Shown: positions 1,452 through 59,152, numbered from the stretch's first letter. The stretch is DNA of 59,396 nucleotides from Girardia tigrina (GCA_001938485.1 MQRK01234570.1:1-59396); one strand, 5' to 3'. The notes: generated by a model not told the origin, from the letters alone. Made by a program: numbers and translations.

Positions 1452-30221
<28,770 letters not shown>

Positions 30222-33982: not shown

Positions 33983-34680
33983 TTGGGTTGTTCGGAAAGT
34001 CATTTCGTTTTTTTAATACTTGTTTTAAATGTATTTTTTTATATTAATAATCATTAATAATCATTGACTATATTATTTATTTTAGCAGTTGGTAATCAAG
34101 GTTAGATTTGGAAAATTTTGGAATAATTAAAAACATTTATATTTGATTTTGACCTATCAAAGATGGAAAGCAAGAATCAGCATTTACAGAATGTATTACT
34201 TTTTTACTTCCGAAAAAGTAAAAATGCTGTACAAGCAAGAAGAAAATTATGCGAATTGCATGGAGAAGATGTGTTGACAGAACGCCAATGTCAAAACTGG
34301 TATAAAACATTTAGATCCGGAAATTTTGATGTTGAAGATTCTTCACGTTCCGGAAGGCCCATTGAGGCCGACGAAGATATAATAAAGGCATTAATTGATT
34401 CAAACCGGAGAATTACAACTCGCGAAATTACCCAGACATTACATTTATCTAATTCGGCCGTCCATGATCATTTGAAGCGCCTAGGTTTTACATCAAAACT
34501 CGACACATGGATTCCTCATAATCTTACCGAACGAAATTTATGCTGTCGTTTAGACATCTGCGATATGCTTCTCAAACGTCAAGAAAATGATCCATTTTTT
34601 GAAGCGCATCGTCACTGGAGATGAGAAATGGATAGTCTACAATAATGTAAAACGCAAGAGATCTTGGAGTAAAAAAAAGT
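33983..34680 (+). mobile_element. Mariner 5' half (same TIR family as 9119-11771)
   Basis: TA then TTGGGTTGTTCGGAAAGTCATTTC. Transposase from 34163 (MESKNQH..., SRSGRP, WIPHNL), frameshifted before IVTGDEKW and truncated. Confidence 0.85.
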
Positions 34681-36605
34681 ATACCGATACCAAGAACCCT
34701 GTAATTTCAAAAAATTTAAACCACAAAAGTTACCTAACCAAGCACCAAGATTAGGTAACGTACAATCCACTTTCATGGTGCAACTTAATAATTTTAAATA
34801 TGATTTTCTCGTTGACACACGTTCAATCGTTTCCATTTTACCAGTTAAATCCTTCATACCCAGTCTTACAAAACAAACAAACAAATTCTTATACGTAGCC
34901 AATGGTAATACAATCAAAACATTAGGTGAACACAAACTGATTATCGATATTGAAAAAAAACATACAACTGGTCATTTATCATCGCCGATGTAACAAACCC
35001 CATACTAGGTGCAGATTTTTTAGCCCATTACAATTTCTTAGTGGATTGCAAGAACAAAAAATAATCAACAATAAGGATAATACTACAATAAACCTAATAA
35101 CCAACAAACTAGACGGATAGGAACTATAAAGCAAAAAAACACACAAAATAACAACATTCTACAAACATCAAAACAAAATTAAAAAAACAATACATACACT
35201 AGAAACATTTAAAAACAGAGAAACAGCATGCTCAGAAATCAATATTAACAATCACAAAACGAATAAAAATAAATTCGTACACTTAGAAAATACAGTAAAC
35301 AAAAATAATTCAAAAATTGAAACAAAAAAAAGACAGTAACAAAAATAATATTAAAACAAACGATAAGAACGACAACATAATTACATTAAATAACAAAATA
35401 ATCGAGGAAATATTAAAAATAACAAATTTGGAAACTCAGACTATAACTAAAAACAAAACCACTCATCAAATAATCACAAAAGGCACCCTAGTACACACGA
35501 AAGTTAGACTTTTAACCGAAGATAAATTAAAAGAAGCAAAAATTATATTTCAAGAACTAACTAATAACGGAGTGATTAGACAATCATCATCAAATTGGTC
35601 ATCACCATTATTAATGAAAAAAAGAAAGACGACACATGGAGATGTTGTGGTGACTACCGACGTTTGAACTCGATAACCATCAAAAACGAATACCATGTGC
35701 CGTTAATTAAAGACATCACAACGAGGTCGAAGAACGCCGCATACTTTACGAAATTAGACCTTGAGAAAGCTTACCATCAAATCCCAATGGCCGATGAGGA
35801 CATACCAAAAAGAGAAATAATTTACTCCATTCGGGTTATTCGAATTTTTAAAAATGACATTTTGGCTTAAAAACGCCGCTTCCACATTTCAACGTTACAT
35901 GGATAATTTATTTCATAAATTGGACTACATCTTAGTATACTTAGATGACATAATTATTGGCAGTAATAATATTAATGAGCATAAAATACACATAGCGACC
36001 GTATTACAAATACTTATGGCAAACGGTTTATCAATCAATTTAAAAAAATGCGAATTTATTAAAACAAAAATCTTATTCCTAGGTCACACTATAGAGAAGG
36101 GCATCATATGAAAGAGAAAATGGATTTCATTAAAAAAATTCAACCACCTAAAAACGTGCAATAAATAAGGAGATTTTGTGGAATGGTAAACTTTTACCAT
36201 AAATTTATACCACATTGCTCAAGTATTTTAGCTCCACTTACAGATATGATAAAAAACAGAACTAAATTACAAAAAATCGAGTGGAATGAAGAAAAACTAA
36301 AACAGTCAACATAATTAAACAAAAATTAGAGTCAATCACAAAATTATACATGATACAACAAGATAGCGAACTAACCTTAACTACAGATGCTTCAAATTAC
36401 GGTATAGGAGCGGTTTCATCACAAACACATAACAACGGTGAAGTTCCAATAGCTTTCTTCTCACAAAAACTAAATGAAACAGAAAAACGCTACTCAACTT
36501 TCGACCGGGAACTCCTAGTAATATACAGGTCTATCAAACACTTTCAAGACTATCTCGAACATAGAACCTTCACAATCAACACAGATCACAAACCTTTAGT
36601 ACAAG
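34681..36605 (+). mobile_element. Decayed Ty3/Gypsy pol (protease-RT-RNase H)
   Basis: FLVDT, PILGADFL, WRCCGDYRRLN, KLDLEKAYHQI, YLDD, TDAS, RYSTFDRELL, TDHKPL; many frameshifts. Confidence 0.85.
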
Positions 36606-37601
36606 TATTAAATTTAATAATAATAATTTTTAAACTTATTATTTTTTTAAAACATTATTTTTTATTATTTTTTAAATTTATTATTTAAAATTATTTGTGA
36701 TCAATATATTGATCATTTTATAAATTTAAAATTTTGTATTAATTTCATATGACGACTTAATGTCGTTAAGTATATAATATAAATAATAATTTACTAATAA
36801 AATAATCAATAAATAAACATATTATATAAATAATAATTTACAAATAAAATAGTACAAAAATAATACGTAGATAATAAATAATTTAATATAAATTTATACA
36901 ATAGCCCCCCCCCTTCATAAGTGGAACGTACACCGACGGGAGTTAATATCAGATTTTTTTGATTTTAAGGCTATAATTAACATTAGAAAAAAAATCGGCA
37001 GTATTGTTATCGAAAACGTTTACTTTATAAGGACCAATAAAACGGGTTCCGAAAATTATTAGATTAATGACTTTGACGTAAGCAATAGCCTCTTTAACTT
37101 GTAATTTTTGTTTGGGTTGTTGATCAAAATTGAACAATTTAACGAATGATTTCTTCCCGCACAGCTTTTCTAATGGAGAAATCCCCAAAGTGGAATTAGG
37201 TTTAAGTTTTAAAGATAAAAGACCTTCTGAAAGAATGTCTAGCCAGTTCGAATCATTTCCTTTGAGCTATATTGATTGTTTGAGATATCGATTGAAAGTC
37301 TCGACTTTACCATTGGAGTTTACTGAACATTTTTGCGTCCGCCAATCTAATAGTGACATCTTTTATTAAAGGAAGTGGATATTCATCTTTCAAAGTTATT
37401 GCGTTAAGGTTACGATAGTCCCCACAAAAACGCCAATCACCATTCGGTTTTTTTCATAAGCAACGCGGAAGACCAATCGTAAAATGATCTTCTTATGATT
37501 TTGCGAGCTTCTAAGTCTCGAAAGATTTCTTTTTCGGCTTCGAGTTTACCTGGCGGTAGACAACAAACACGAGAATGTAATCGCAAACCATTCGTAATAA
37601 T

Positions 37602-37810
37602 TGTTAGGATAATTAAATTAATATCAATACATATTTATATTTAAATTCATATCTCTATTTATAAATATATAAAGGATCCATTATATGATTATATAGACTC
37701 CTGAAATTGTTTGAATCAATCAACGTAATTATAAATTACGGACATAATTTAATTTTGATTAGAAATAAATATTTCTTCTAGTTTCGATTTTTTAATGAAT
37801 AATTCTTACA
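37602..37810 (+). repeat. 5' LTR
   Basis: Matches 42148-42356 at 207/209. Confidence 0.95.
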
Positions 37811-38843
37811 TGGCGACCACGCCTAGCATCGTTAATAATTTAGCACCGAAGATATTCGATGGNNNNNNNNNNNNNNNNNNNNNNNNNNNNNNNNNNNNNN
37901 NNNNNNNNNNNNNNNNNNNNNNNNNNNNNNNNNNNNNNNNNNNNNNNNNNNNNNNNNNNNNNNNNNNNNNNNNNNNNNNNNNNNNNNNNNNNNNNNNNNN
38001 NNNNNNNNNNNNNNNNNNNNGAACGATTACGGAAAGCGTTCAAAAAACCAACATCGTTGATCCAAGATTTACAAGACCTGATGACCTATCGTAAAGGATC
38101 AGACTCGGCTCCTGCATTTTTCAATAAAGTGGAAAAAATAGTCGATAAAATTCTGAATCACAAATGGAACAAGCAAGAACTCATGTCCTATTTTTTGACC
38201 CATTGTGTGGAAGATGTCAATATGAAGACTCAAATTTTAATGCATGAAGCAAAATCACCNNNNNNNNNNNNNNNNNNNNNNNNNNNNNNNNNNNNNNNNN
38301 NNNNNNNNNNNNNNNNNNNNNNNNNNNNNNNNNNNNNNNNNNNNNNNNNNNNNNNNNNNNNNNNNNNNNNNNNNNNNNNNNNNNNNNNNNNNNNNNNNNN
38401 NNNNNNNNNNNNNNNNNNNNNNNNNNNNNNNNNNNNNNNNNNNTCCAAAAGGATCCATACAACAAAGTGGTGAAAAGGATGGTAAATCTTTTGTTTGTTA
38501 TCATTGCAGGAAATCTGGACACATTCGTCGAGATTGTCCAGAAATATCAAGAATTTGCTATGAATGTCGTGATGTTGGACATATTCGGAAAGATTGCCCA
38601 TATGTTAAATGTTCCAAATGCGATAGCCATGGACATTTAGGATATCAATGTTTCAAAAATAAAACCAGAATGCTAACTTGGAATCAAAGATCTGGCCAAT
38701 TTGGTCGATATGAGCAGCAATACCGACGAGACGTGGCTGGAGTAGACGAAATAAATGATTCAAGATCAGTTGAATTTGAAACAGATAGACCGTCAAACTN
38801 NNNNNNNNNNNNNNNNNNNNNNNNNNNNGGAGCCATAAATTAA
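37810..38843 (+). CDS. gag: Gag with three CCHC zinc knuckles (gapped)
   Basis: MATTPS...PKIFDG; CYHCRKSGHIRRDC, CYECRDVGHIRKDC, CSKCDSHGHLGYQC. N gaps obscure frame continuity. Confidence 0.8.
37811..37821 (+). other. Primer binding site (tRNA-Arg-like)
   Basis: TGGCGACCACG immediately after the LTR CA. Confidence 0.7.
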
Positions 38844-38857
38844 AATGTAAGAATATT

Positions 38858-38950
38858 TTGGATCCTTATATATGTAATATTAGTAGTTGTAAATGTATTT
38901 ATAATAGTAATAATATATATCGTAATTATGATATTGGTAGTATTTATAAT

Positions 38951-38984
<34 letters not shown>

Positions 38985-41900
38985 TTAATAACAGTGATGT
39001 AACTAATGTAGAGGGTATAGCATTTATTGAGAATACTAGAGGTAGTACAATCTTGAAGAGCGCAGATCGATATTTATTAACATTTGTAATGAATTCGAAA
39101 GATAAGTTACGTTATAATGTTTTTAATGGGAGGCCAAGCATGTTGACAAAAATTGGCGGTTTGGAATTAAACTGTTTGCTTGACACAGGAGCTCGAATTA
39201 ATGTATTGGATGAAAAGATTGTTAAAGAGTTACAGATTTTGATAGATAATAAATCTATAATGAATGTAGTTTGTACCAATGGTAGTGGTATGGAGTTGTC
39301 AGGAACATGTAGAATTAATGTTATGTGGCGGAGTGTAAAAATAAATGCATTATTTTATATCGCGAAGAGAGTATTCCCATCTGTTATTTTTGGAATAAAA
39401 TTAATAAGTGATTTAGGTTTCGAACTTAAATGTAATGGAGTGATTACATCTGAAAAAGAGGATATAATGAGCGATTCAAAGACATATATTTGTGCATTAG
39501 ACCCATATGTAGGTAAATTTCAATATAATGAGAAACATAGAATGCAGAATGCAATTAAGAAATTAAATCTGAAGACTAATACAACTTTATATAAGTGCGT
39601 CGAAAAATACAAAAATATATTTATGGCTGGTNNNNNNNNNNNNNNNNNNNNNNNNNNNNNNNNNNNNNNNNNNNNNNNNNNNNNNNNNNNNNNNNNNNNN
39701 NNNNNNNNNNNNNNNNNNNNNNNNNNNNNNNNNNNNNNNNNNNNNNNNNNNNNNNNNNNNNNNNNNNNNNNNNNNNNNNNNNNNNNNNNNNNNNNNNNNN
39801 NNNNNNNNNNNNNNNNNNNNNNNNNNNNNNNNNNNNNNGAAATTCGTTTGTGTCTAGACTTTAGACTTTTAAATCAGATTACAGAAAGACCTGCCTTCCC
39901 AATGCCAAATATAGATGAGATGCTAGATTCTTTGAAAGGGGCCCGATGGTTTAGTTCTGTTGATTTAGGAAACGCTTACTATCAAGTGGAGTTGGAAGAA
40001 AATTCGAGATTGCAAACTGCCTTTTCAACCCAAACAGGACAGTTTTGTTTTACGAGAATGCCTTTCGGCATAGCAGCGGCACCAGCAACGTTTCAAAAGT
40101 TGATGACAGATGTTTTGGGAGAAATGTTATGGAAGGAGGCATTAGTTTACCTGGACGACATTTTAATATTTTCAGAAACAGAAGCACAACATTTAGACCG
40201 ACTGGACAAGCTATTTTGGAAGATTCAAGCTGCAGGACTCAGAATAAACCCAGAAAAGTGTAAACTTTTTCAAACAGAATTAAAATTTTTAGGTCACATC
40301 GTTAACAGAGATGGAATTAAGACAGATCCTAAAAAAATCAGAGCAATTCAAGATTTCGAAAAACCAAATTGTATTAAAAAGTTACGCAGTTACTTGGGGT
40401 TATGTAACTATTACAGGAAATTTATTCAACAATATTCGAAATTATCTAAACCATTAGAGGAACTATGTGGAAGTTCAAAAGATAAACTTTATTGGTCTGA
40501 CTCCCATACTGANNNNNNNNNNNNNNNNNNNNNNNNNNNNNNNNNNNNNNNNNNNNNNNNNNNNNNNNNNNNNNNNNNNNNNNNNNNNNNNNNNNNNNNN
40601 NNNNNNNNNNNNNNNNNNNNNNNNNNNNNNNNNNNNNNNNNNNACAAAGGTGAGGAACAAGTGATTGCATATGGTTCGAAAACTATGTCAAAGCATGAAA
40701 TTGGCTATTGTATTACTCGGAAAGAGTTATTGGCTATTTTTTTATTTCACTCAGCACTTTAAACATTATCTGTATGGTGCAAGTTTTAAATTGCGAACCG
40801 ATCACAAAGCAATAGAATTTATGATGACCACAAGGAAACCCATAACACCACAATTCCAAAACTGGATGAATTATTTAAGTAGCTTAGATATGGTTTTAGA
40901 GTACAGAAAAGGAATATTACATCAAAATGCAGATGCCTTGTCGAGAACAGATTGTATGGCATGTGTGCAATATCTTATTAAGCATGATGAAGCAAAATTG
41001 ACCAAATCAAAGACAAGAATGATTGCAATAGATGAAAAGGAATTGCATATCCCTTGGCAACAAAGTAACGATGAAATTAAAGAAATATTAGGAAAGTTAA
41101 ATAGTGGTAGTAGTATAAATTTTAAGGAATGCAATGGTTGTGTAAGAANNNNNNNNNNNNNNNNNNNNNNNNNNNNNNNNNNNNNNNNNNNNNNNNNNNN
41201 NNNNNNNNNNNNNNNNNNNNNNNNNNNCAGGTGTGAATAAAGTATATTCTTTCATGAAAGACGAATATGATATGGATAGTTTTACTAAAGAAATAGAATC
41301 AGTGGTTCGTAGTTGTCCTACCTGTCAGTTATCTAAAACATACACGAGAAAAACGAAGGAAGTATCTCTTGACTTAGTATCTCAGCGCCCTTTAGATGAT
41401 ATTTATATAGATTTTTGTGGACAATTGCCTGTAGTTTGTGGTAATAAATATATTTTAGGAATTATCGACAGATTTAGCAGGTATATAAGTTTAACAGCCG
41501 TGAATAGTCAAGATGAAGAAACATTAATTACAACAATCCAACATAAGTGGATATTTAGATTTGGANNNNNNNNNNNNNNNNNNNNNNNNNNNNNNNNNNT
41601 CTTCGAGTCAAAAAGTTTTAAAGAATATGCTAAATCTATGTTAATTACAATTCACTTTTCCAGTCCATATCATCACAGTTCAAACGGCATAATAGAACGT
41701 CAATTTCGAACTATTCGAAATGCACTGAATGCAACACTGAAAGATAGAGGAGGTTCAAACTGGGTTGATATTCTCCCAGAAATTGAATTTAGCATTAATG
41801 TGTCCAGACAAAGCACCACTGGGGTAAGTCCGGCGGAAGTTATACTGGGAAAACGTTTAACTTTAGATGGCTCTCGTCACTATGAATTAGACAATAAAAA

Positions 41901-42153
41901 GATTATTGAAAAAATTAAACAAAGTGAGGCAAGTAAATCAGACAAATCAAATACACCAAGACGAGAATATAAGGAAGGTGATTTAGTTCTAGTAAAGATA
42001 GAGAATAGACAGAAAGGAACAGACCATTATGAAAGCCCTTATGAAATAATACGGAAACTCCATGATCGATCTTTTGAAATGAAAAATAAAACCGGAAGAG
42101 TTATAGCTAGAAATATAGAATGGCTGAAACCTTTTAAAGAAGGGGGGTGTTAG
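38858..42153 (+). CDS. pol: Pol (protease, RT, RNase H, integrase), with gaps and one frameshift in a T-run near 40740
   Basis: LLDTGA; LCLDFRLLN; SVDLGNAYYQ; MPFG; YLDD; KELLA; TDHKA; CPTCQ; YIDF; IIDRFSRY; PYHHSSNGIIER. Confidence 0.9.
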
Positions 42154-42356
42154 AATAATTAAATTAATATCAATACATATTTATATTTAAATTCATATCT
42201 CTATTTATAAATATATAAAGGATCCATTATATGATTATATAGACTCCTGAAATTGTTTGAATCAATCAACGTAATTATAAATTACGGGCATAATTTAATT
42301 TTGATTAGAAATAAATATTTCTTCTAGTTTCGATTTTTTAATGAATAATTCTTACA
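42148..42356 (+). repeat. 3' LTR
   Basis: Follows the PPT; matches the 5' LTR. Confidence 0.95.
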
Positions 42357-46137: not shown

Positions 46138-46373
46138 TGATATATTATTTTTTCTTTAATATATGTTTTTTTTAAAAAAATCTAATTAGTAGTTTTTTAT
46201 GTCCCCCATCTTGTTAATCCTCGCAACCGAGGGCCGAAAATAAATTTTAAACAAAAACCCCTATCAGAATTTCAATCAACAATTTTGTTTTAATAAACAA
46301 AATTTGGTCAGTTTTTTGAATTCAATAAATTTTTTGTGGAAAAGAATTTTTTTCTTTTTTATTTTTCATACAC
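46138..46373 (+). repeat. 5' LTR
   Basis: Direct repeat of 51266-51460 with substitutions and indels; followed by a PBS resembling the tRNA-Leu type TGGTGTCAGAAGTGG. Confidence 0.75.
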
Positions 46374-46530
46374 AAAAAAATGGTGTTAGAAGCGGTCCCA
46401 TTTGCCGCACTGTGTTCATTCTCGGCTATGGGTTACCCACAACTCCCGGACACAATGAAATTTTCCACAGTTTCAATCACCACCCGCCGATCAACCTCTA
46501 ATGCGTACACTCGGATCCACCAAATTCAGA

Positions 46531-46765
46531 TACGCCACTCACGGACCGGTTTACAAACACCGATTTATCATCGCAGTATCGAGCAACTCTCGCTTCATCG
46601 CTCACGGACCAGTTTTCAATCACCGGTCCATTATAGTGGAATGGATCAGTTCACGATTCGCCGTTCACGGACCGGTTTAAAAACACCGATCCATCATCGC
46701 GGAACCGAGCAAATATCGATTCGTCGCTCACTTACCGGCCTTCAAACAGCGATCCAGCATATCTT
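46531..46765 (+). repeat. 63-bp tandem repeat (about 4 units)
   Basis: ACGGACC recurs at 46541, 46604 and 46667, with the variant ACTTACC at 46730. Confidence 0.85.
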
Positions 46766-46920
46766 CTCTGTGCTCAGTACGTTACTCTCCTCCCGACGCA
46801 GATCAAATTTAAATGAGATTAACCCCGGTTTAACATTCCCGAGGTCAACGAATGCGAAATACAGGACGAATCATCGATCGGTGACACCCATGTCAGTTGT
46901 CATGGTGAGTTTAATTAATT

Positions 46921-48265
46921 TTGACCTTCTATATGCGGGGAGCGACATTTTTGGGGTACATTTCATTATATTGTTTATTTAATTATTTAATGAATTTAAA
47001 TAAGGAAAATTTTATTGAATTTTTTATATTTTTTTCGCATAAAATGTGGGTCGGTGGACTTAATTTTGGGGTGATTCGAAGGGAAAATTCAGTTCCTTTC
47101 AATATTATTTGTTTTTATTATTTCACAAACATCCCATCATTATCCCAACGCAATGATATATCCATAAAGCTCCAGGGAGATATCGGTGACTCCACGCTTA
47201 GGGTTGCTCTCGATGCGCGCATTTGTGACACTTTATCGTTACTGAAGGACGATGATAAATCTCGTGTTTGGTTAGTATGGGGCACCAAGCCGCTTCGCCC
47301 ACATCTAACTTGGTCCGCATATAATATAACGAATGAAGCGAAAATCACCGTGCACCGCGCCCTACCGGGTGGTATGATAAATACACCCGAGGAAGGTGAA
47401 AATATTAATGCGATATCCCTGCCCACTGCACCACCGCCGTATTTTCTGGACACGAAGGGATCACCCCAGGGTTGGTTAGACATCATTGAGATGCGATTTA
47501 GGATCCAAAAGTTGACCAACCAAGTTGCAATGTTCCACCACGCATTGTGCGTACTCCCACCCGAGCTTATGCAGTCCGTTACGGCACACCTGGCAACTAT
47601 AGGATCTCACGAGAATCCATTTGATGAGTTGAAGAGACGGATTCTCCAATCCTTTAAACCATCACTTGATGAAATCTTTGCAAATTACTTTCAGTTGCAA
47701 TCCCTGGGAAGCCAGAAACCGGCAGTCTTTCTAGCTAAGGTCGTCACGAATTTAGAAGCAATCCATCCAGAAATTACAAACGGCCCAGAAAACGAAGTAC
47801 TCAAGCGATTTTTTACGACCACAATTTGGTACCACAATTACCAATCTAAACCAGTCGGCGAAGATTGCAGACAACATTAAAGGAACACAAGTTGCGGAAT
47901 CATCCACCTGCTTTCCTGTTTCTACACCGTCAACTCAGTCGTCTCCTCCTGCAGCACCAACCGATCTCTCCAGTCAAATTACAGCGTTACAACTACAAAT
48001 GCAGGAAATTAAGATGCAGATAACGGCACTCAATCATGGGAAACAAAGGGATTTTCGAAAACGACAATCGTCAGTTGACTGTAATCGTTCGCCAAGCACC
48101 AACTTGTTCTGGTATCACAGCAAATTCGGAAAAGGAGCAAAAAAATGCATTCCCGGTTGCACATGGATGGATCACACACGAAAGTTGGACATAAATAACA
48201 TATGTATCTATCACTCTCGTTATGGTGACCAGGCAAAGCGTTGTGCACCTGGTTGTTCTTTCTAA
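46921..48265 (+). CDS. gag: UBL-Gag (frameshift near 47815; true start uncertain)
   Basis: Ubiquitin-like domain at 47152-47373 ends LPGG. Met 47374 follows, then the Gag N-terminus AISLPTAPPPYF...PQGWLDIIEMRF. The frame-shifted C-terminus has two CHCC-type motifs. Confidence 0.8.
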
Positions 48266-48280
48266 ACTCCAAAAAACTGA

Positions 48281-51220
48281 GTTCCATCTTCGGTCTTCGC
48301 AGCCGACTCAGAAGGCTCCAACAATTACTGCAGCATTTTCGCGTGCAACGCCATAATTAGCGGTCATTCATCCGAAACAATGTCATTCTTGGCTAACACT
48401 GGTTCAGCCATATCGGTTCTTCCCAGAATTTTCCAACCGCAAACAATGCGTTCTACCCGCCGACTTTCAGCCGCTAACGGATCAGTCGTCCACACTTATG
48501 GAACAATCAATCTCTCGTTCAAGCTTGCCTCTTTGGACCCATCTTTCCAGTGGAACTTCACTGTTGCATATGTAACGCAACCTATACTTGGCGCTGATTT
48601 ATTTGACCATTTTGGATTATTGGTGGATTGCAGAAACAAAAAACTAATCTTGCACCACACATTGGAACCTGTGTCCACCACACCGACTGAATCGAAAATC
48701 TGCTCACTCGTTTCTGATCCTGCACAATATATTAAACAGAACTTTCCGAATACAATAAATGCAACTGATCACTTTAACGAAACTGGCAACTGCATTTCAA
48801 ATCATGTCATCGTCACAATGCCGTGTGCACCAGTCCGGCAACGCCGCCGCGAATTGTCCCAAGAAAGACTCCTGGCCGAAAAGGAATTCAAGGAACTTGA
48901 GCAGTGCGGCATTATACGCCGATCCAGTTCTCTGTGGGCCGCTCCTCTGCAGATAGTCACCAAGAAGGATGGATCGTTACGCATCTGTGGCGATTATAGA
49001 GGTTTGATTACCGATATATTACAACGTTTCTCTGGCTGCAAAGTTTTTTCATCACTGGATTTGGCTAAAGCGTATCACCAAATCCCAGTTGCTGAAGACT
49101 CAATACCGAAAACCGCCATCATAACGCCATTTGACCTCTTCGAATATCTTCGAATGCCGTTTGGTCTCCGTAACGCTTCACAGACTTTCCAGAGACATAT
49201 CGACATCATCCTCTCTGGCTTATCGAACACGGCAGCGTATATGGACGACATAGTTATTGCGTCCCCGGATGAAACTTCTCACCAACAACATCTTTCAGAT
49301 ACTCTGTCGAGACTCAATGCCAACCATCTCAAATTGAAGCTCACCAAAATTCGTCCACTACCAGAACGAATCAAGGCCATCACAAATTTTCCCCAACCAG
49401 AAACGGTCACAACCCTGCACAGCTTTCTGGGGATGGTCAATTACTGTCGCTTATTTATTCCAAACATTTCAGCGACTCTGACTCCACTTACAGATATGTC
49501 ATCTGGACCCAAAAAGCAACAATTATCCTGGTCCGAAGAAGCAGTGAGAGCTTTTCAGCAGATAAAACTGGACATTACACAGACCACATCGCTCCGATTT
49601 CCAGACAGCTCTCTACCAATAACGCTTACGACAGATGCATCTAATATCGCAATTGGTGCAGTCCTGATGCAGGTGCGTGACAAAATTCCTGAACCACTGG
49701 AATTTTATTCACACAAGCTCTCGCCAACCCAAACTAGGTACTCTACCTTCGATAGAGAACTCCTTGGTTTGTTCATGTCGGTAAAACATTTCGAACACTT
49801 GTTGATTGGCCGATCGACAACAATGTATACAGACCATAAACCACTTCTCCACATCTTTCAAATGAAGAATCCGTCACCACGTCAACAAAGACAGATCAGC
49901 TATTTATCCCAATTTGACATCGAGATCAAATTTATCTCCGGAGCTGACAACGTCATTGCTGATTGTTTTTCATGAATCGAATTGGCTTCATTAGACTTTG
50001 AACCATTATTCACCCAAGACATCCTGGAGCAGAATCCACCATCGGATAAGGACCTAGCTACTTTCAAGGAACAACCAACCACACGTGGCCGCATTTATTT
50101 CGACAGCTCCATCGCAGGTTGTCCACGCCCCGTTCTCGGATCAGCCCTCCGTGCAGATGCGTTCAAGGCCGTCCATTCCAGCGCTCATCTCGGATCGAAG
50201 GCAACATATGAACTATTGCGCACAAAAGTCATTTGGCCTTACATGCGCCGCGATATTAAGCTATGTTGCAAAGCTTGCCTACAATACCAAGCCAACAAAG
50301 TATCTAGACAACCAAGTCTCTAGTTCTCAGCTTTCCGACAGGCAGCCGTTTTGATACAATACATATGGACATCGTCGGTCCACTTCCACCCTGCAATGGC
50401 TACTCATGTCTCCTCACCATCATCAATCGGAACACGAGTTGGCCAGAAGCATTTCCAATGAGGAACATTGCAACCGAGACAATTGTTGAAATTTTTGTCA
50501 ACAATTGGATCACCAGATTTGGCGTTCCCAAGCGCATAATCACAGACCAAGGCCGCCAATTTGAGTCCCACATCTTCACCAACCTACTCCAAAGGCTGGG
50601 AACTCAACTTAAAACCACGGCATTTCAACCACAGTCAAATGGTCTTGTCGAAAGATTTCATAGGACATTAAAGAACTCCCTTAGGACAATGTCCGTTAAC
50701 AGAAACTGGACCAAACAGTTGCCAATGCTCCTCCTTGGATGGAGAAATATTCCCAGTAGCCGTCACGGATCTTCACCAGCTCAGATGCTGTTTGATTCCA
50801 ATACGTCACTCGTCAATGAGATTTTTTTAGCGACTGTCCCAGCAATGACGAACAACTTGAACTGGCCCGGCAACACTTCATCAACCAAGACACTTCTCCA
50901 CCAAAACATACTGCATTCAAGGTACATATGCCGAAAGACTTGTGCAACGAAAATTCATATGGTTGGTTCGAGAACACCCAACCTCTCTACAAACCAGATA
51001 CACTGGCCCACATCTAGTAGTACAGCTCAACATGGAGAACAATACAGCCACAATTAATTTTAAAGGCACGCACCGCACCGTCAACTTATGCAAGTTGAAA
51101 CCTTATATTCACATCTACGACGACCCAGGCAATTTCACGACAATTTATTCCATCAAAAAGTCAGTCTCATTCTCCCCATGGGTTCAATTATCGAATGCAT
51201 CGTACTCGATTCCATTATGA
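48281..51220 (+). pseudogene. pol: Pol (protease D-to-N, RT, RNase H, integrase), disrupted
   Basis: FLANTGSAIS, PILGAD, ICGDYR, SLDLAKAYHQ, MPFGLRNA, YMDD, TDAS, TDHKPL, MDIVGP, TDQGRQF, QSNGLVER, YTGPH; deletions, stops and frameshifts. Confidence 0.9.
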
Positions 51221-51265
51221 ACAGCTTAACATTCCTGCGATGTCTCCGCATCTCAAAGAGGGAGC

Positions 51266-51460
51266 TGATTTTCTTTAATATGTTTTTTTTAAATCTAATT
51301 AGTATTTTTTATGTCCCCAATCTTGTTAATCCTCACAACCAGGGGCCGAAAATAAATTTTAAACAAAAACTGCAATCAAAAATTTTGTTTTAATAAACAA
51401 AATTTTGTCAGTTTTTTGAATTCAATAAATTTTTTGTGGAAAAGATTTTTATTCTTTTTT
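51266..51460 (+). repeat. 3' LTR (3' end truncated)
   Basis: Follows the PPT; homology to the 5' LTR stops at about 51460, where exonuclease sequence begins. Confidence 0.75.
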
Positions 51461-51901
51461 GCTAAATTCTTTTTTTAAGGATATAAATGGTCTATCCTTG
51501 GTGACACCATATTTCTGGAATACTTTACCGGCTGACGTATCACGGATATCAAGTATAGATTGGAGCGGAATTGCGCACGCTTTGAGTTCTAGTTGGACAT
51601 CGTGCAATTGTCGATGGATTTCGGCAATTGCGTGATATTCGTCCATTGTGTCACATACATCGGAATCTTTTATTCCATGACAAAAGGAGACAAAGTAATG
51701 GATACGTGATCTTTGGTGTACCACGGTGTGCATAAAGACTGCGCCGTGATAATATAGGATCGTGACTGATACTAAATGGTGTTTCTTGTCGGTACCTACG
51801 GCAAATTCTCCATCCATGACGCGGATTCGGATTTGTATCTCTTTTTCAGATAAGGGTTTTCTGAGGAATGAACCTCTGTTTAATAATGGTGTCCGATATA
51901 T
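51449..51901 (-). pseudogene. DEDDh 3'-5' exonuclease, REX4/ISG20-like (C-terminus truncated)
   Basis: VMDGEF (Exo I DxE), LVSVTILNYHGAVFMHT.V, HGIKDSDV, IRDTS and ISLKK follow the REX4 pattern ALDCEM/ARVSIVNYHG/SGI/IRDTS/PSLKKL. The ILVG segment before Exo II is deleted. Confidence 0.75.
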
Positions 51902-52337
51902 TTACATCTGATTCAATGATCAGATAGGAGTTTTCGAGGAACGGATTCTGGAGATCGTCCTGTAGGATGAATATCCCTACATCATCCGATGTTGAGATCC
52001 GAATGTCATTCTATTGTTCAATTTCTTCGATGTCCGTCACTCTGAAGACTTGGACCTCGATTGATTTCTTTTCGGGCAAATTAATAGTGGTTGACCCGTC
52101 AGTAATATGGAGAAGTGCCAATGCTGCATGTATGTATACAGCTAAGACTCTGTAAAAAGGTCGGTTGAAGATGGTGGGGAATGAGTGTCTATACACTCCC
52201 ATAATATCTGCTATGGCCATTCGTCCAGGGATACTTCGCTTTACGATGACCATTCTTTTGTTGAAGGTATTATATACCAATTTATTANNNNNNNNNNNNN
52301 NNNNNNNNNNNNNNNNNNNNNNNNNNNNNNNNNNNNN

Positions 52338-53516
52338 TGGAGCGGAATTGCGCACGCTTTGAGTTCTAGTTGGACATCGTGCAATTGTCGATGGATTTCG
52401 GCAATTGCGTGATATTCGTCCATTGTGTCACGTACATCGGAATCTTTTATTCCATGACAAAAGGAGACAAAGTAATGGATACGTGATCTTTGGTGTACTA
52501 AGGTGTGCATAAAGACTGCGCCGTGATAATTTAGGATCGTGACTGATACTAAATGGTGTTTCTTGTCGGTACCTACGGCAAATTCTCCATCCATGACGCG
52601 GATTCGGTTTTGTATCTCTTTTTCAGATAAGGGTTTTCTGAGGAATGAACCTCTGTTTAATAATGGTGTCCGATATATTTACATCTGATTCAATGATCAG
52701 ATAGGAGTTTTCGAGGAACGGATTCGGGAGATCGTCCTGTAGGATGAATATCCCTACATCATCCGATGTTGAGATCCGAATGTCATTCTATTGTTCAATT
52801 TCTTCGATGTCCGTCACTCTGAACACTTGGACCTCAATTGATTTCTTTTCGGGCAAATTAATAGTGGTTGACCCGTCAGTAATATGGAGAAGTGCCAATG
52901 CTGCATGTATGTATACAGCTAAGACCCTGTAAAAAGGTCGGTTGCAGATGGTGGGGAATGAGTGTCTATACACTCCCATAATATCTGCTATGGCCATTCG
53001 TCCAGGGATACTTCGCTTTACGATGACCATTCTTTTGTTGAAGGTATTATATACCAATTTATTAGGGTATTTAGCTGGGTATTCGAGTTTCGTTTTTGTT
53101 ATGGGTTTATTTCCTGGCAACCCATATTGCATCCATCTGTAAAACATATTTGGGTAATAATGTGGCGTTACCTGGAATTGAAATAACATGGTCACCTCTA
53201 ACTGTAATTGTGCAGAAGGGTGCCATTCTGAATGGATTGGTACGGCTGACCCCATATACTCATATTTGTGCTCTTCAATCAGAGCATGCTTCTCATCCTC
53301 AACTTGTTGCAGGCGTAGAACCTCAGAAAAATTTATATGGGTTCTTTTATCACGTAAATGGACAGGTGTATCCATATATCGGTTATTGGCCTCTACTACG
53401 CGTTCCCTTACCCCGTAAAGAGAAGATATCTGAGCTGTCCCCGATTTGCTGTACATATTTCTCCGCTCATCGGCTGGAGTACATTGAGGATATCTCATTA
53501 CATCGAAGCGAGGCAT
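52338..53516 (-). pseudogene. Unknown about 240-aa domain plus REX4-like exonuclease N-half (in-frame TAG at 52788, frameshift near 52680)
   Basis: An intronless open frame MPRFDVMRY...EEIEQ* continues through NDIRIST... and IYRTPLLNRGSF... into RVMDGEF. Confidence 0.6.
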
Positions 53517-53657
53517 CTTGGGATTGGGTTTCTTGAACAATCTAGAAGGGAATAAATAATCGGTGAGTGGTTGTATACTAATAACTAAAAATATAAGTAA
53601 ATATGATAATTTAAATTTATAGATTTTAATTTGCCTCGTGTCATTTTTGATTAAAAT

Positions 53658-54308
53658 TTGCATACCTGTGTTACATTTACGTACACCCCTGGCAGGTATT
53701 GCCCCAAGGATGTACGATATAAGTTTAAAGTCATTATCTTTTTCTGGTATTCTTTACATATTTTCACAATTGGCATTAAGGATACCTCGGCCGGAAAAAA
53801 ATTCGAAGAAAAGTATGGATTAAAAAACGAACAAAGGCACTTCTTAAAGGCCTTGTCGCGAAAAGTACTCCATGAGGAAATACAACAACTATACCATTCC
53901 GACATACATGACGCAAAGGCAGTTTGGCGAATTTATCTAAAGAAGGAACAGGAATGGATAGATACCATTTCATTCCGTGATAAACGAAGTCTGTTGGGAT
54001 CTTTGAAATTCGCTGGAATGGAGACTTCTAAAGAACCGGACGTAGTACAGGATAAACAGACAAACTATTCACCATCAGTAACAATAAACCCATGGATTAT
54101 GGAGAAGGACGAACTCCCGCGAGTCGATATAAAGAGTGTTCCGACCCAATCTACAAAAAAATCAACTTCACAGTGGATAGCGGAATTACCAACAGGGTCA
54201 GTACAAGGCAATAAAGTAAGTCCTATAATAATTGATTTGATGGATCCTGAAAGTACCTCAGTTGCCTCTTCATTCGCAAAAATTTTTACAGAACGAACAA
54301 CACGTTGA
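53658..54308 (+). pseudogene. Paralogous DEDDh exonuclease C-terminal half plus tail
   Basis: IKDTSAGKKFEEKYG...LKALSRKVLHEEIQQLYHSDIHDAKAVWRIY contains the Exo III H-x4-D motif; it aligns with IRDTSAGKVFQKYG of the minus-strand copy. Confidence 0.7.
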
Positions 54309-56560: not shown

Positions 56561-57048
56561 AGTTGTCACCGATAACAACAGATTTGTATAAATTAAGGCC
56601 TTTTATTTTTAGAATAGGTAACTATTGGCAATTTTTTCTTTCCACAGTAGAGCGCATATGAATGCAGATTCGCGTTAAAGATCAAGGCTTGATGTGGATC
56701 GATTTAATACTAATTAGCATAATTTGTGAAAAGATTATATTTTTTGACTATTTAGGATACATAAAAGTAATTCATTGTTAATCCCACTACAAAAGACTTA
56801 ATAAAATGCATGTATGAGATCAAGTACAAGTTCATATTATAACATATTTCAAAAGCAAGCTCATGGGTCTTATGAATTATGGTTACTCTCTTTTTAAAAA
56901 GTGCTTTCAAATATAGTGCAGATTTCAGATGCAGCACAGACTTTTATCGAAATTGACAACTTACGACTAAAAGTGCGGAATAAAATCTTAGGTTTTGAAT
57001 AATTTTGCATCTAAGCCAATGTCTTATTCATACATTAGAGTATAATTA

Positions 57049-57976
57049 TAAACAACAAAAAATTTTCGTCAAAATATATTGTTATTAATTTCGACGGATC
57101 AACCGTCATCATGAGACTAAATAAACAATGATATACTCGCGTTTATATATCAAAGCAATGTTTATGTAATCATTATGTCATTAAAATCATGAAAATACTT
57201 TCAATAAAGTTGAAGAGGATGGTGTTTGGACATTGATTTTAGGATCAAAAGATTCTATCAACAATGCTTCACACATACTCCTCTCCCAGTAATTATCAAA
57301 TTGTGAACACCAAATCATAAAATTACTTAAATCAACTTTACTATTCAAACAGTTCTTCTTATGCTAATATTGATAATATATTATGATAATATTTGTTTTG
57401 TTTTGACTGTTCCCTACTCTGAGGGTTTCAGGAAATTCAAAAACTATTTTGAAACATGATGAAAATAATTTATTAAATTTAAAAATTGTATCTAGATCAT
57501 GTGAGATAGGAAGTTTGTTCAGTAGTAAATCTATCACTCCAACTGGGTTATGTTCCAATTTANNNNNNNNNNNNNNNNNNNNNNNNNNNNNNNNNNNNNN
57601 NNNNNNNNNNNNNNNNNNNNNNNNNNNNNNNNNNNNNNNNNNNNNNNNNNNNNNNNNNNNNNNNNNNNNNNNAAGAAGAACTGTTTGAATAGTAAAGTTG
57701 ATGTAAGTAATTTTAAGATTTTGTGTTCACAATTTGATAATTACTGGGAGAGGGTGATGTGTGAAGCATTGTTGATTAAATCTTTTGATCCCAAAATCAA
57801 TGTCCAAACACCATCCTCTTCAACTTTATTGAAAGTATTTTCATGATTTAAATGACATAATGATTGCATAAACATTGCTTTGATATATAAACGCGAGTAT
57901 ATCATTGTTTATGATGATGACGGTTGATCCGTCGAAATTAATCACAATATATTCTGACGAAAATTTTTGTTGTTTA
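57049..57976 (+). mobile_element. 5'-truncated Penelope element with inverted pLTR
   Basis: GIY-YIG C-terminus (TPTGLCSNL...CEALLIKSFDPKINVQ...FS*). 57049-57360 is the inverted copy of 57673-57976, and each arm has a degenerate hammerhead. Confidence 0.8.
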
Positions 57977-59152
57977 AAAATTCGTTGTCGTCATTTTGTA
58001 AATATTTATATAATTATAAACTTCATTATTTAGGTTTTGCCGATCTCTGACCCACTATGCACTCGTAGAATATCTGATCCTTTTTGGCCAAAAACAGAGT
58101 TAAGAGAGATGTTCTAGTGTCATCATCCTTGAAATTTTTACCACGAATGGAGTTGTCCAGGTGTCGAAATAAGTGATAATCCGATGGCGCAAGATTCATG
58201 GTTATATTCCCCACCAATATCCATCAATTGTTACCGAGTGGTGAAAGATGTAAGAGGCCTAGCATTATCCTTTTTTTAAAATGACACCTTTACGATTGAA
58301 TTTGCTTATCCTTGACCGCTGAATTCAATTTGTCCAATTGCCGACAGCAGACCTCCGAATTATTGCTTTGGTTCCTTGGAAGAAGCTCAAATTTACGACG
58401 GACCTTTCCAATCCAAACAAATAGACGGAAAAATCTTCTTTTCACTCGTTAGATATGCACCATGATCGTTTTCGATTGAGATTGTTGTGTACAATCTACT
58501 TTTCGTCTCGAGTGAGGATTCATTAAAAAAGGATGGAATTCATTGCGTTGATGATATTTGTCAGATGAATTTCTTTCAAATCATACGGAACATAAATAAT
58601 ATTCAGCTTCTTGACGAGACCGACACGTTTTAAATATTTCTTAAAGGCTGTATGTGAAACATTTAACTTCTCTGTAGTCTGCCGTATAGTTACATGACGA
58701 TCCACTTCAACTATAGTTTTCATTTCTTCCTCATTAAACTCAACTGGTCGACCTGAACGTTAGTTATCTCTAAGAGAAAAATCTTTACATCGGAATTTAT
58801 TAAATCTATTTCGGCATTGACTTTCTTTAAGGGCTTCTTTACCATACACATCACGCAAATGTTTAGCGGTTTACACTGCGCTCTTTGCTTTACGGAAATA
58901 ATAAACAAAAATATGGCGAAAATCTTCTTTTTTGCACTCGATATTGATTATTGAAATCATTAAAAAACTTTAACAAAAAATACACATTGAATTTGTAAAG
59001 CTAGATTAGGATGACAGCTAACACATATAAGAAGTTCATAACATTTACGGATGTCATAGAAATGGGAGAGAGAGACATCGACAGCTGAAAGCGGCAATTA
59101 CTTAGTTGCGGACCCAATAAATAATCTATAAAAATAAATCAATAATATTCCA

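Follow-up and report, generated by a model that had tools for sequence, protein, structure and literature searches.

Gene remnants at the locus

The window analysed here, a 59,396-nucleotide (nt) stretch of Girardia tigrina DNA (GCA_001938485.1 MQRK01234570.1:1-59396), contains at 51449..54308 two open reading frames (ORFs) that an initial annotation had described as head-to-head, intronless paralogs of the REX4/ISG20-like exonucleases. The minus- and plus-strand ORFs do not constitute a gene pair; they are broken pieces of one accessory gene, here termed ORF3, from two Ty3/gypsy subfamilies, and the locus almost certainly represents the decayed remains of ORF3 as the last gene of an env-bearing Ty3/gypsy family. 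The pieces, in the order of the minus-strand gene and followed by the plus-strand fragment, are:

53764, minus strand: upstream break point of the minus copy, where nucleotide homology ends
53730..53764, minus strand: last ORF2 codons, encoding in intact elements the cytoplasmic tail behind a transmembrane helix (tblastn 92% to the ORF end of the related locus L058)
53662..53729, minus strand: predicted -1 ribosomal frameshift signal (U_UUA_AAC, 6-nt spacer, 13-bp stem 1 and 7-bp stem 2 of an H-type pseudoknot)
52791..53661, minus strand: 5' part of ORF3, subfamily A, with an AT-rich hydrophobic linker, then the N-terminal domain, and a premature stop at the end (77% amino acid identity to L018)
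52338..52790, minus strand: ORF3 continued, with the end of the N-terminal domain, a frameshift, and motif I to the damaged motif II; cut by an N gap
51561..52287, minus strand: second copy of 52338-53064 beyond the N gap (98.6% over 727 nt, 10 substitutions)
51476..51901, minus strand: exonuclease remnant that retains motif I and IRDTS, has a deletion at motif II and breaks off before motif III
53773..54308, plus strand: 3' fragment of ORF3, subfamily B, with the last third of the exonuclease, motif III (H-x4-D) and a low-complexity tail

The motifs originally reported are mostly as described: MDGEF and IRDTS are present in the minus frame (51449-51901), IKDTS...LKALSRKVL...YHSDIHDA in the plus frame (53655-54308), and DTSAGK.F..KYG is common to both. 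The KK of the reported 'SLKK' is junction sequence, as homology of the minus copy to intact copies ends at 51476 and close intact copies read SLVAL. Neither ORF is a whole gene as had been supposed. Aligned with L018, a relative whose reading frame is open, the minus copy spans 53764 to 51476. It has acquired a premature stop and a frameshift, has lost 7 codons at motif II and lacks everything from motif III on. In the plus frame homology to relatives begins only at 53773 and takes in motif III, within the final third of the exonuclease, and the tail; motifs I and II (Exo I/II) are lacking, and the ~40 codons at the start of the frame are antisense to the minus copy. Motif I and motif III of the window hence belong each to a different broken copy, and the interval between the two frames is the remainder of the minus gene, namely the N-terminal domain and the frameshift signal. 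The L058 ORF matched by 53730..53764 is an integrase-ankyrin-membrane ORF, and the plus fragment is 81% identical in nucleotides to C243876 and 68% to C213884, with likeness to related loci running on to ~55004.

A profile of intact relatives matches both window frames (E 2e-48 for the minus and 4e-14 for the plus frame), and in a 136-row quick tree they fall in different subclades, that of the plus copy being separate with 98% support. Sequence searches of the PDB with the plus frame recovered ISG20 as best match at only E 0.15, and with the minus frame nothing relevant. The ratio of nonsynonymous to synonymous substitution rates (dN/dS) between the N-terminal part in the window and its closest copy L009 is 1.59 over 140 codons, which fits the expectation for neutral decay. 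Both window copies are dead; what remains is a fossil locus with an incidental layout.

The head-to-head join at 53764/53773, earlier read as a functional arrangement of paralogs, is a single-locus rearrangement between fragments of two subfamilies. Contigs assembled from two DNA sequencing runs and from one other run contain it, with a depth that stays level with the unique sequence on either side; these contigs extend only 25-30 letters to the left of 53765, just below the 31-letter rule, and the best-supporting run may be the assembly's own sample. No continuation past 53764 was found among the listed genomic matches to the minus copy. Two oppositely oriented ORF3 copies of different subfamilies were almost certainly joined by a local deletion or rearrangement. 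The repeat of 51561-52287 at 52338-53064, its two units separated by an N gap (52288-52337, 50 N), probably reflects haplotypes or near-identical copies that overlap in the assembly.

The exonuclease domain of ORF3 and its relationships

Judged by its sequence, intact ORF3 encodes a REX4/ISG20-like exonuclease in which motif II is usually E (DEEDh). The Pfam RNase_T check suggested by the initial annotation gave a divided outcome: neither window frame matches at E<=1, and intact relatives exceed the cut-off. A 17-copy profile matches ISG20L2 (1.6e-19), ISG20 (2e-18), SDN1 (4.6e-10) and PAN2, and a model of the exonuclease superimposes on ISG20 (1wlj) with Z 18.7 and a root-mean-square deviation (rmsd) of 2.3 over 159 aligned residues. 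The D and E of motif I (D-x-E) and the H and D of motif III (H-x4-D) are invariant in 17 aligned copies; in a wider set of 47 frames the motif III D is present in 37, altered in 2 and not found in 8. At motif II, E occupies 35 of the 47 frames, D 10 and other residues 2, so that an Asp is not the rule at this position. According to the available part of one report, an E at motif II is catalytic in the coronavirus/nidovirus ExoN (PMC7654266).

Both domains of ORF3 are under purifying selection: dN/dS across the two is 0.02-0.33 in 13 pairs of copies, each pair from a single subfamily and not saturated at synonymous sites, apart from a value of 0 in one short comparison; pairs between subfamilies are mostly saturated at such sites. 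The claim that these genes are intronless unlike the host gene holds: the exonuclease domains are uninterrupted, and host REXO4, a separate gene at C12004/C235352, has a 59-nt GT-AG intron. A 38-row tree splits 20 element-type from 18 cellular rows at 100/99, its bootstrap being not fully settled, and the 136-row quick tree agrees on this split. Trees that place host REXO4 together with the window ORFs are rejected (p-AU 0.00024). The phylogeny thus sets the window ORFs apart from a REXO4 retrocopy and, with the LTR-element context described below, bears out the earlier suggestion of cargo of a large mobile element over the housekeeping gene. The separation of the element clade from cellular proteins leaves the alternative of an expanded host defence family unsupported.

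Database searches recovered 52 cluster representatives at E<=1e-30. The clusters P0029, P0030, P0012 and P0040 comprise remote relatives found in ENA/Logan assemblies, and their contigs of 12-17.6 kb are as long as whole elements; 6 of the 7 members of P0030 lie on contigs of 15.3-17.6 kb. A search of the ESM Atlas with P0030 returned only cellular REX4-type clusters. Further, P0025, P0042 and P0046 with their tree neighbours form a long-branch subgroup with a degenerate motif I, one of them with a 1113-residue repetitive tail; these are possibly domesticated pseudo-nucleases.

The N-terminal domain

The domain preceding the exonuclease has no Pfam match and no usable ESM Atlas match. Modelled alone it gave a pLDDT of 77.6 and a pTM of 0.74, and the model matched the prolyl 4-hydroxylase 2jij (Z 10.9, rmsd 3.4, 156 aligned, 6% identity), followed by AlkB proteins (Z about 8) and cupins, with most top rows being 2-oxoglutarate (2OG) oxygenases or cupins. 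The model has a double-stranded beta-helix core, and from such models of relatives a 2OG-dioxygenase-like fold of this type is predicted for 52791..53661 of the window. The HxD/E...H iron triad was not found, no HxD/E occurring at one column in more than 5 of the 32 rows. One His (31/32) and one Glu (29/30) are conserved elsewhere in the domain and may form an altered metal site. On the strength of these models, the domain is probably an inactive dioxygenase fold used for binding. Vaccinia C16, which we take to be an analogous inactive dioxygenase fold, was only a weak fold match (rank 47), and we found no paper on this analogy.

Architecture of the carrier element

The assembled genome comprises 1.43 Gb in 255,254 contigs. 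A search of it with PF00929 gave 149 matches above the cut-off among the best 150 of 776 candidates; the top three (L021-L023) are of a different protein type and most others are long uninterrupted domains. From these matches 39 exonuclease loci were fetched, chosen for long flanks. The N-terminal domain lies upstream of the exonuclease in 37 of them, co-oriented pol/env in 19, and pol, env or ORF2 in 26; in the 30 loci whose upstream sequence reaches 4 kb or more, the counts are 18 for pol/env and 21 for pol/env or ORF2. Two showed nothing upstream. Pfam domains occur in the order gag/zinc knuckle, Monjiviricetes_fusion, protease (PR), reverse transcriptase (RT), RNase H (RH), integrase (IN), ankyrin or FN3 plus membrane protein, and ORF3. 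The succession of gag, a class III-type env and PR-RT-RH-IN was met on single contigs (L114 + L097; L122 + L081); it is read from relatives, the window itself holding none of it. Two contigs each carry a complete element, one of about 14.8 kb and the other of about 17.4 kb. They have long terminal repeat (LTR) pairs of 99.9% and 90% identity, TG...CA ends and TGG primer sites, and one of the two has a 4-nt target duplication. LTR pairs were not found in 3 of the 6 contigs tried. Neither complete element has a polypurine tract before the 3' LTR, a C-rich stretch being present instead; a short GC hairpin and C-rich run precede the 3' LTR at L097:8500-8533 and L081:8130-8161. The carrier is thus an env-bearing Ty3/gypsy element of the structure LTR-gag-env(Monjiviricetes-type fusion protein)-PR-RT-RH-IN-ORF2-ORF3-LTR, about 15-17 kb in length.

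ORF2 encodes either ankyrin repeats or FN3 together with a membrane protein. At L058:3320-4811 its end is an unannotated membrane protein of ~500 residues with 7 N-glycosylation sequons, whose tail bears three Tyr and ends in TQV; in other subfamilies the protein is shorter or of the FN3 type. A rearranged copy (L055/L056, on C248807) has an env fragment joined directly to the ORF2 transmembrane end and the frameshift box, and the opposite strand of C248807 bears an unrelated 466-residue membrane-protein ORF.

The carrier is this env-bearing element and not a Polinton, one of the possibilities raised earlier, or a DNA-virus insertion. No ORF3 relative was found in IMG/VR, which thus lends no support to a DNA-virus or phage source, and giant-virus exonucleases are fold matches only, at about 21% identity. 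From the JGI metagenome, 3 weak loci of 68 candidates were rejected as false, all lying in GC-rich bacterial-type DNA.

A predicted frameshift signal upstream of ORF3

The segment corresponding to 53662-53729 on the minus strand (the box) is 79-97% conserved even between elements with non-alignable flanks. Its 0 frame ends ORF2 and its -1 frame is ORF3. Programmed -1 frameshifting calls for an in-frame X_XXY_YYZ heptamer, a spacer of 5-9 nt, a stable downstream structure and an open -1 frame, and the box combines all of these. The exact box pattern has 387 genomic matches and the reversed control none; by eye, an exonuclease match follows ~1 kb downstream on the same contig for at least 7 boxes among the matches listed. 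The fetched loci supplied 45 boxes, a sample in which boxes near an exonuclease are over-represented. Of these, 42 retain an intact heptamer and 36 a complete stem 2. The -1 frame continues for 240 nt without a stop in 29 of 42 boxes, the other frames in 0 of 42; through the 78%-AT segment the -1 frame stays open in 32 of 43, where 0.8 would be expected, and upstream of the ORF3 ATG 24 stops were observed against 169 expected. Folding z-scores of four boxes are -2.87 (window), -3.47, -3.43 and -0.44. Rfam gave nothing significant over the box.

From these sequence features, intact copies probably express ORF3 by -1 frameshifting at U_UUA_AAC and the pseudoknot, whereby a fraction of ribosomes would leave ORF2 and enter ORF3. 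A pyrimidine-rich YAG is present 0-3 nt before the ORF3 ATG in all 11 representatives, so that a spliced subgenomic message may also exist. That ORF3 comes only from such a message, the box being a splice, packaging or template-switch signal with no frameshifting at all, appears unlikely: this would agree with the YAG, with the donor-like CAG/GTAT at the box end, with covariation not being seen and with recombination breakpoints coinciding with the box, but it leaves unexplained both an in-frame slippery heptamer correctly spaced from a 13-bp stem and the avoidance of stop codons before the ATG, and an acceptor lying 0-3 nt from the ATG gives no constant in-frame splice from that donor.

The FN3-type loci L083, L102, L108, L111, L086 and L092 carry, in place of the box, a different short conserved motif (GTAACC-GTA core) before ORF3.

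Exchange of ORF3 between near-identical backbones

Alignment of L058 with L081, L076, L025 and L027 shows 93-96% nucleotide identity to just past the box and 64-72% after it, whereas identity to L048/L049 is 90-94% throughout. Within the L058 backbone group integrases are 96-100% identical as against 59-75% for the exonucleases, except for near-copy pairs (91-98%); on a second backbone (92-98%) the exonucleases are 74-86% identical. Synonymous sites of the swapped ORF3s are near saturation, and faster evolution alone is therefore insufficient to explain their divergence. These comparisons show that near-identical backbones swap ORF3s, with the switch point just after the predicted frameshift signal. 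Elements might in this way refresh ORF3 by recombining in different cassettes at the conserved signal.

At L073 an exonuclease ORF3 follows, at a distance of 2.8 kb, a co-oriented integrase that shares only 24-30% identity with that of the family, representing either transfer to another Gypsy lineage or chance nesting.

Comparison with known elements and proteins

Flatworm GAG-ENV-POL errantiviruses have been published, e.g. Smed_errantivirus_1-6 (PMC13524379, consulted as the accessible portion). Like the carrier they are Ty3/gypsy elements with env between gag and pol, and by eye the env of Smed_errantivirus_1 shares motifs such as RRAKVREC, CGKWSHTS and TGKLQ.HPFC with L123. This likeness, with the AT-richness of the genome, points to a planarian host. 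In its accessible portion the main text of that survey has no occurrence of exonuclease, DEDD, ankyrin or accessory, and the supplements none of exonuclease or REX4; an LTR or primer site is listed there for none of the six Schmidtea entries. The search described ended 3 kb past pol, and extra ORFs such as those of the carrier would push the LTR out of its reach.

The rotifer elements Juno and Vesta, as described in the accessible part of PMC5408684, resemble the carrier in having a 3'-end accessory DEDD-superfamily exonuclease on a Ty3/gypsy backbone, a change from DEDD to DEED and sharing between element lineages. Their exonuclease is of the DEDDy, RNase D-like type, replaces env and lacks transmembrane domains, whereas planarian ORF3 is DEDDh and REX4/ISG20-like, occurs with an env also present, is fused to a domain with a predicted dioxygenase fold and lies downstream of a predicted frameshift signal. 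Burro, from the available text of PMC6431247, shares ankyrin repeats and accessory ORFs with the carrier, and in both an env akin to mononegavirus glycoproteins lies in frame between gag and protease. It exceeds 30 kb and bears MATH, BIR, BCL2 and dUTPase, with no exonuclease mentioned in that text; the carrier, in contrast, is about 15-17 kb, and these four are absent from its scanned ORFs. Cellular ISG20, ISG20L2, REXO4 and plant SDN1 share fold and catalytic motifs with ORF3, which differs in forming a separate clade, in a motif II that is mostly E, in the extra N-terminal domain and in being mobile. As in ORF3, the AlkB N6-methyladenosine demethylase ORF of an orchid Gypsy element is a 2OG-dioxygenase fold carried as LTR-element cargo with a proposed counter-defence role; that AlkB is active and recognisable (PMC9289625, available part), while the ORF3 N-terminal domain, without a Pfam match or conserved HxD/E, is slightly nearer to prolyl hydroxylases than to AlkB and is nuclease-fused.

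PMC6338049, in its accessible part, cites only the rotifer exonuclease case. Our literature search found no description of ORF3; Repbase/Dfam notes, subscription papers and bioRxiv supplements lay outside it, and a prior annotation is possible there. As far as the literature was searched, the backbone type is known and ORF3 is a previously undescribed variant of a known exonuclease cargo.

Possible functions of ORF3

Taken as a whole, the combination of this identity, expression by frameshifting and a counter-silencing nuclease appears to be the best explanation of the data, and we hold it with somewhat better than even confidence. ORF3 might degrade the RNAs that trigger or guide host silencing, a reading to which its sequence lends a little less than an even chance. 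It would be a metal-dependent 3'-5' exoribonuclease of the DEDDh/DEEDh type, guided by the probably non-catalytic dioxygenase-fold N-terminal domain, and its targets would be small RNAs and cleaved or double-stranded element RNA. A more elaborate possibility, offered with greater reserve, is an exchangeable counter-defence cassette, in which a captured REX4/ISG20-type ribonuclease would be combined with a dead dioxygenase-fold targeting domain, dosed by frameshifting, with the signal doubling as the swap point.

Several observations weigh against this explanation. Thirteen of the 39 loci have no pol, env or ORF2 upstream; selection within lineages is purifying; and the fold of the N-terminal domain comes from a model (pTM 0.74) that has 6% identity to its match. 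As regards expression, 10 loci that were scanned, most of them from the FN3 clade, showed no such box; one box of four (z -0.44) folds no better than shuffles; and the pseudoknot is without two-sided compensatory change, stem 2 being invariant and stem 1 shifting register with bulges. Double-frame coding alone could conserve the box, and the open-frame counts are not independent, the copies being related. Moreover, the stretch after the slip is hydrophobic, above shuffles in 8 of 12, so that the frameshift product could enter the lumen of the endoplasmic reticulum, a poor fit for a cytosolic nuclease.

Tentatively, a counter-silencing role is nevertheless ranked ahead of two others. The first, which we consider rather unlikely, is that ORF3 is a replication helper packaged with Pol, trimming primer or template 3' ends or proofreading for the RT, with silencing irrelevant. 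It draws on the strong purifying selection, on the tie between ORF3 dose and Pol that frameshifting would create, on the C-rich stretch and lack of a purine tract in two complete elements, in which plus-strand priming may be unusual, and on the 3'-end processing proposed for the rotifer ORF3 exonucleases in the available part of PMC5408684. A core factor should track its Pol, yet very different ORF3s are found on the same backbone, and ORF3 sits behind a membrane anchor. Most Ty3/gypsy elements, furthermore, replicate without such an exonuclease, which also counts against a helper of this kind.

The second, a role in restricting competing retroelements or RNA viruses (superinfection exclusion) in the manner of ISG20, possibly as a membrane-bound or secreted protein, is less likely still. 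ISG20 and ISG20L2 are the closest solved relatives, the expression route is membrane-linked and cassette diversity fits competition between elements; however, there is no sign of how the element's own RNA would be spared, and the likeness to ISG20 (24-29% identity) reflects the REX4 family as a whole. For the window copies, a host gene family or REXO4 retrocopies can practically be dismissed, for although the ORF3 family derives from the REX4/ISG20 group and the long-branch database relatives with degenerate active sites may be domesticated, the split of the element clade from cellular proteins, the rejected grouping with host REXO4 and the fixed position of ORF3 in LTR elements all speak otherwise.

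Neighbouring mobile elements in the window

The minus copy abuts a further Gypsy element, the UBL-Gypsy of the initial annotation:

46145..51463, plus strand: neighbouring Gypsy with a ubiquitin-like gag N-terminus and broken pol, not the carrier
about 46145-46374 and 51266-51463, plus strand: its LTRs of ~200 nt, the 3' LTR missing its last ~15 nt
46381, plus strand: its primer site

Its pol is only 30-36% identical in amino acids to that of the carrier, and it is hence a separate, unrelated element. The ubiquitin-like start of its gag ends in a Gly-Gly motif and matches Pfam ubiquitin only at E 0.041; there is also a DUF7041 match. Contig depth far exceeds the local unique level, indicating a high-copy family. 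A clean insertion of this element into the minus gene was rejected, as the remainder of the gene is not on its far side; another break almost certainly fused the minus copy to its LTR. The window also has remains of other transposable elements (37602-42356, 35300-37300, 6312-7244, 9651-11101, 34127-34624 and 57044-57982): two further Gypsy elements, of which one has LTRs of 209 nt at 99%, a transposase of the Tc5/pogo type, fragments of mariner and an element with inverted repeats. At 21380-21580, beside an N gap, lies a short frame that we take to resemble part of histone H2B, with no Pfam match.

Implications

The 3' region of GAG-ENV-POL elements is undescribed in the accessible portion of a recent survey (PMC13524379). 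To their anatomy the present elements add a predicted frameshift at the 3' end, the exchange of cassettes between elements of one backbone, and a fusion of a nuclease with a probable pseudo-dioxygenase. If the proposed interpretation is true, a coronavirus-like -1 frameshift would be placed after pol rather than before it, and the cassette family would extend to other hosts, in elements of 15-17 kb in environmental assemblies. Suppressors of small-RNA silencing that are encoded by the element itself are known from few animal retrotransposons. The ORF3 family provides a candidate enzyme that is conserved, under selection and present in several hundred copies, and whose catalytic residues are clear, in planarian hosts whose RNA interference (RNAi) and PIWI-interacting RNA (piRNA) biology is easily tested, and it would represent a transposon-encoded nuclease acting against piRNA/RNAi in stem-cell-rich animals.

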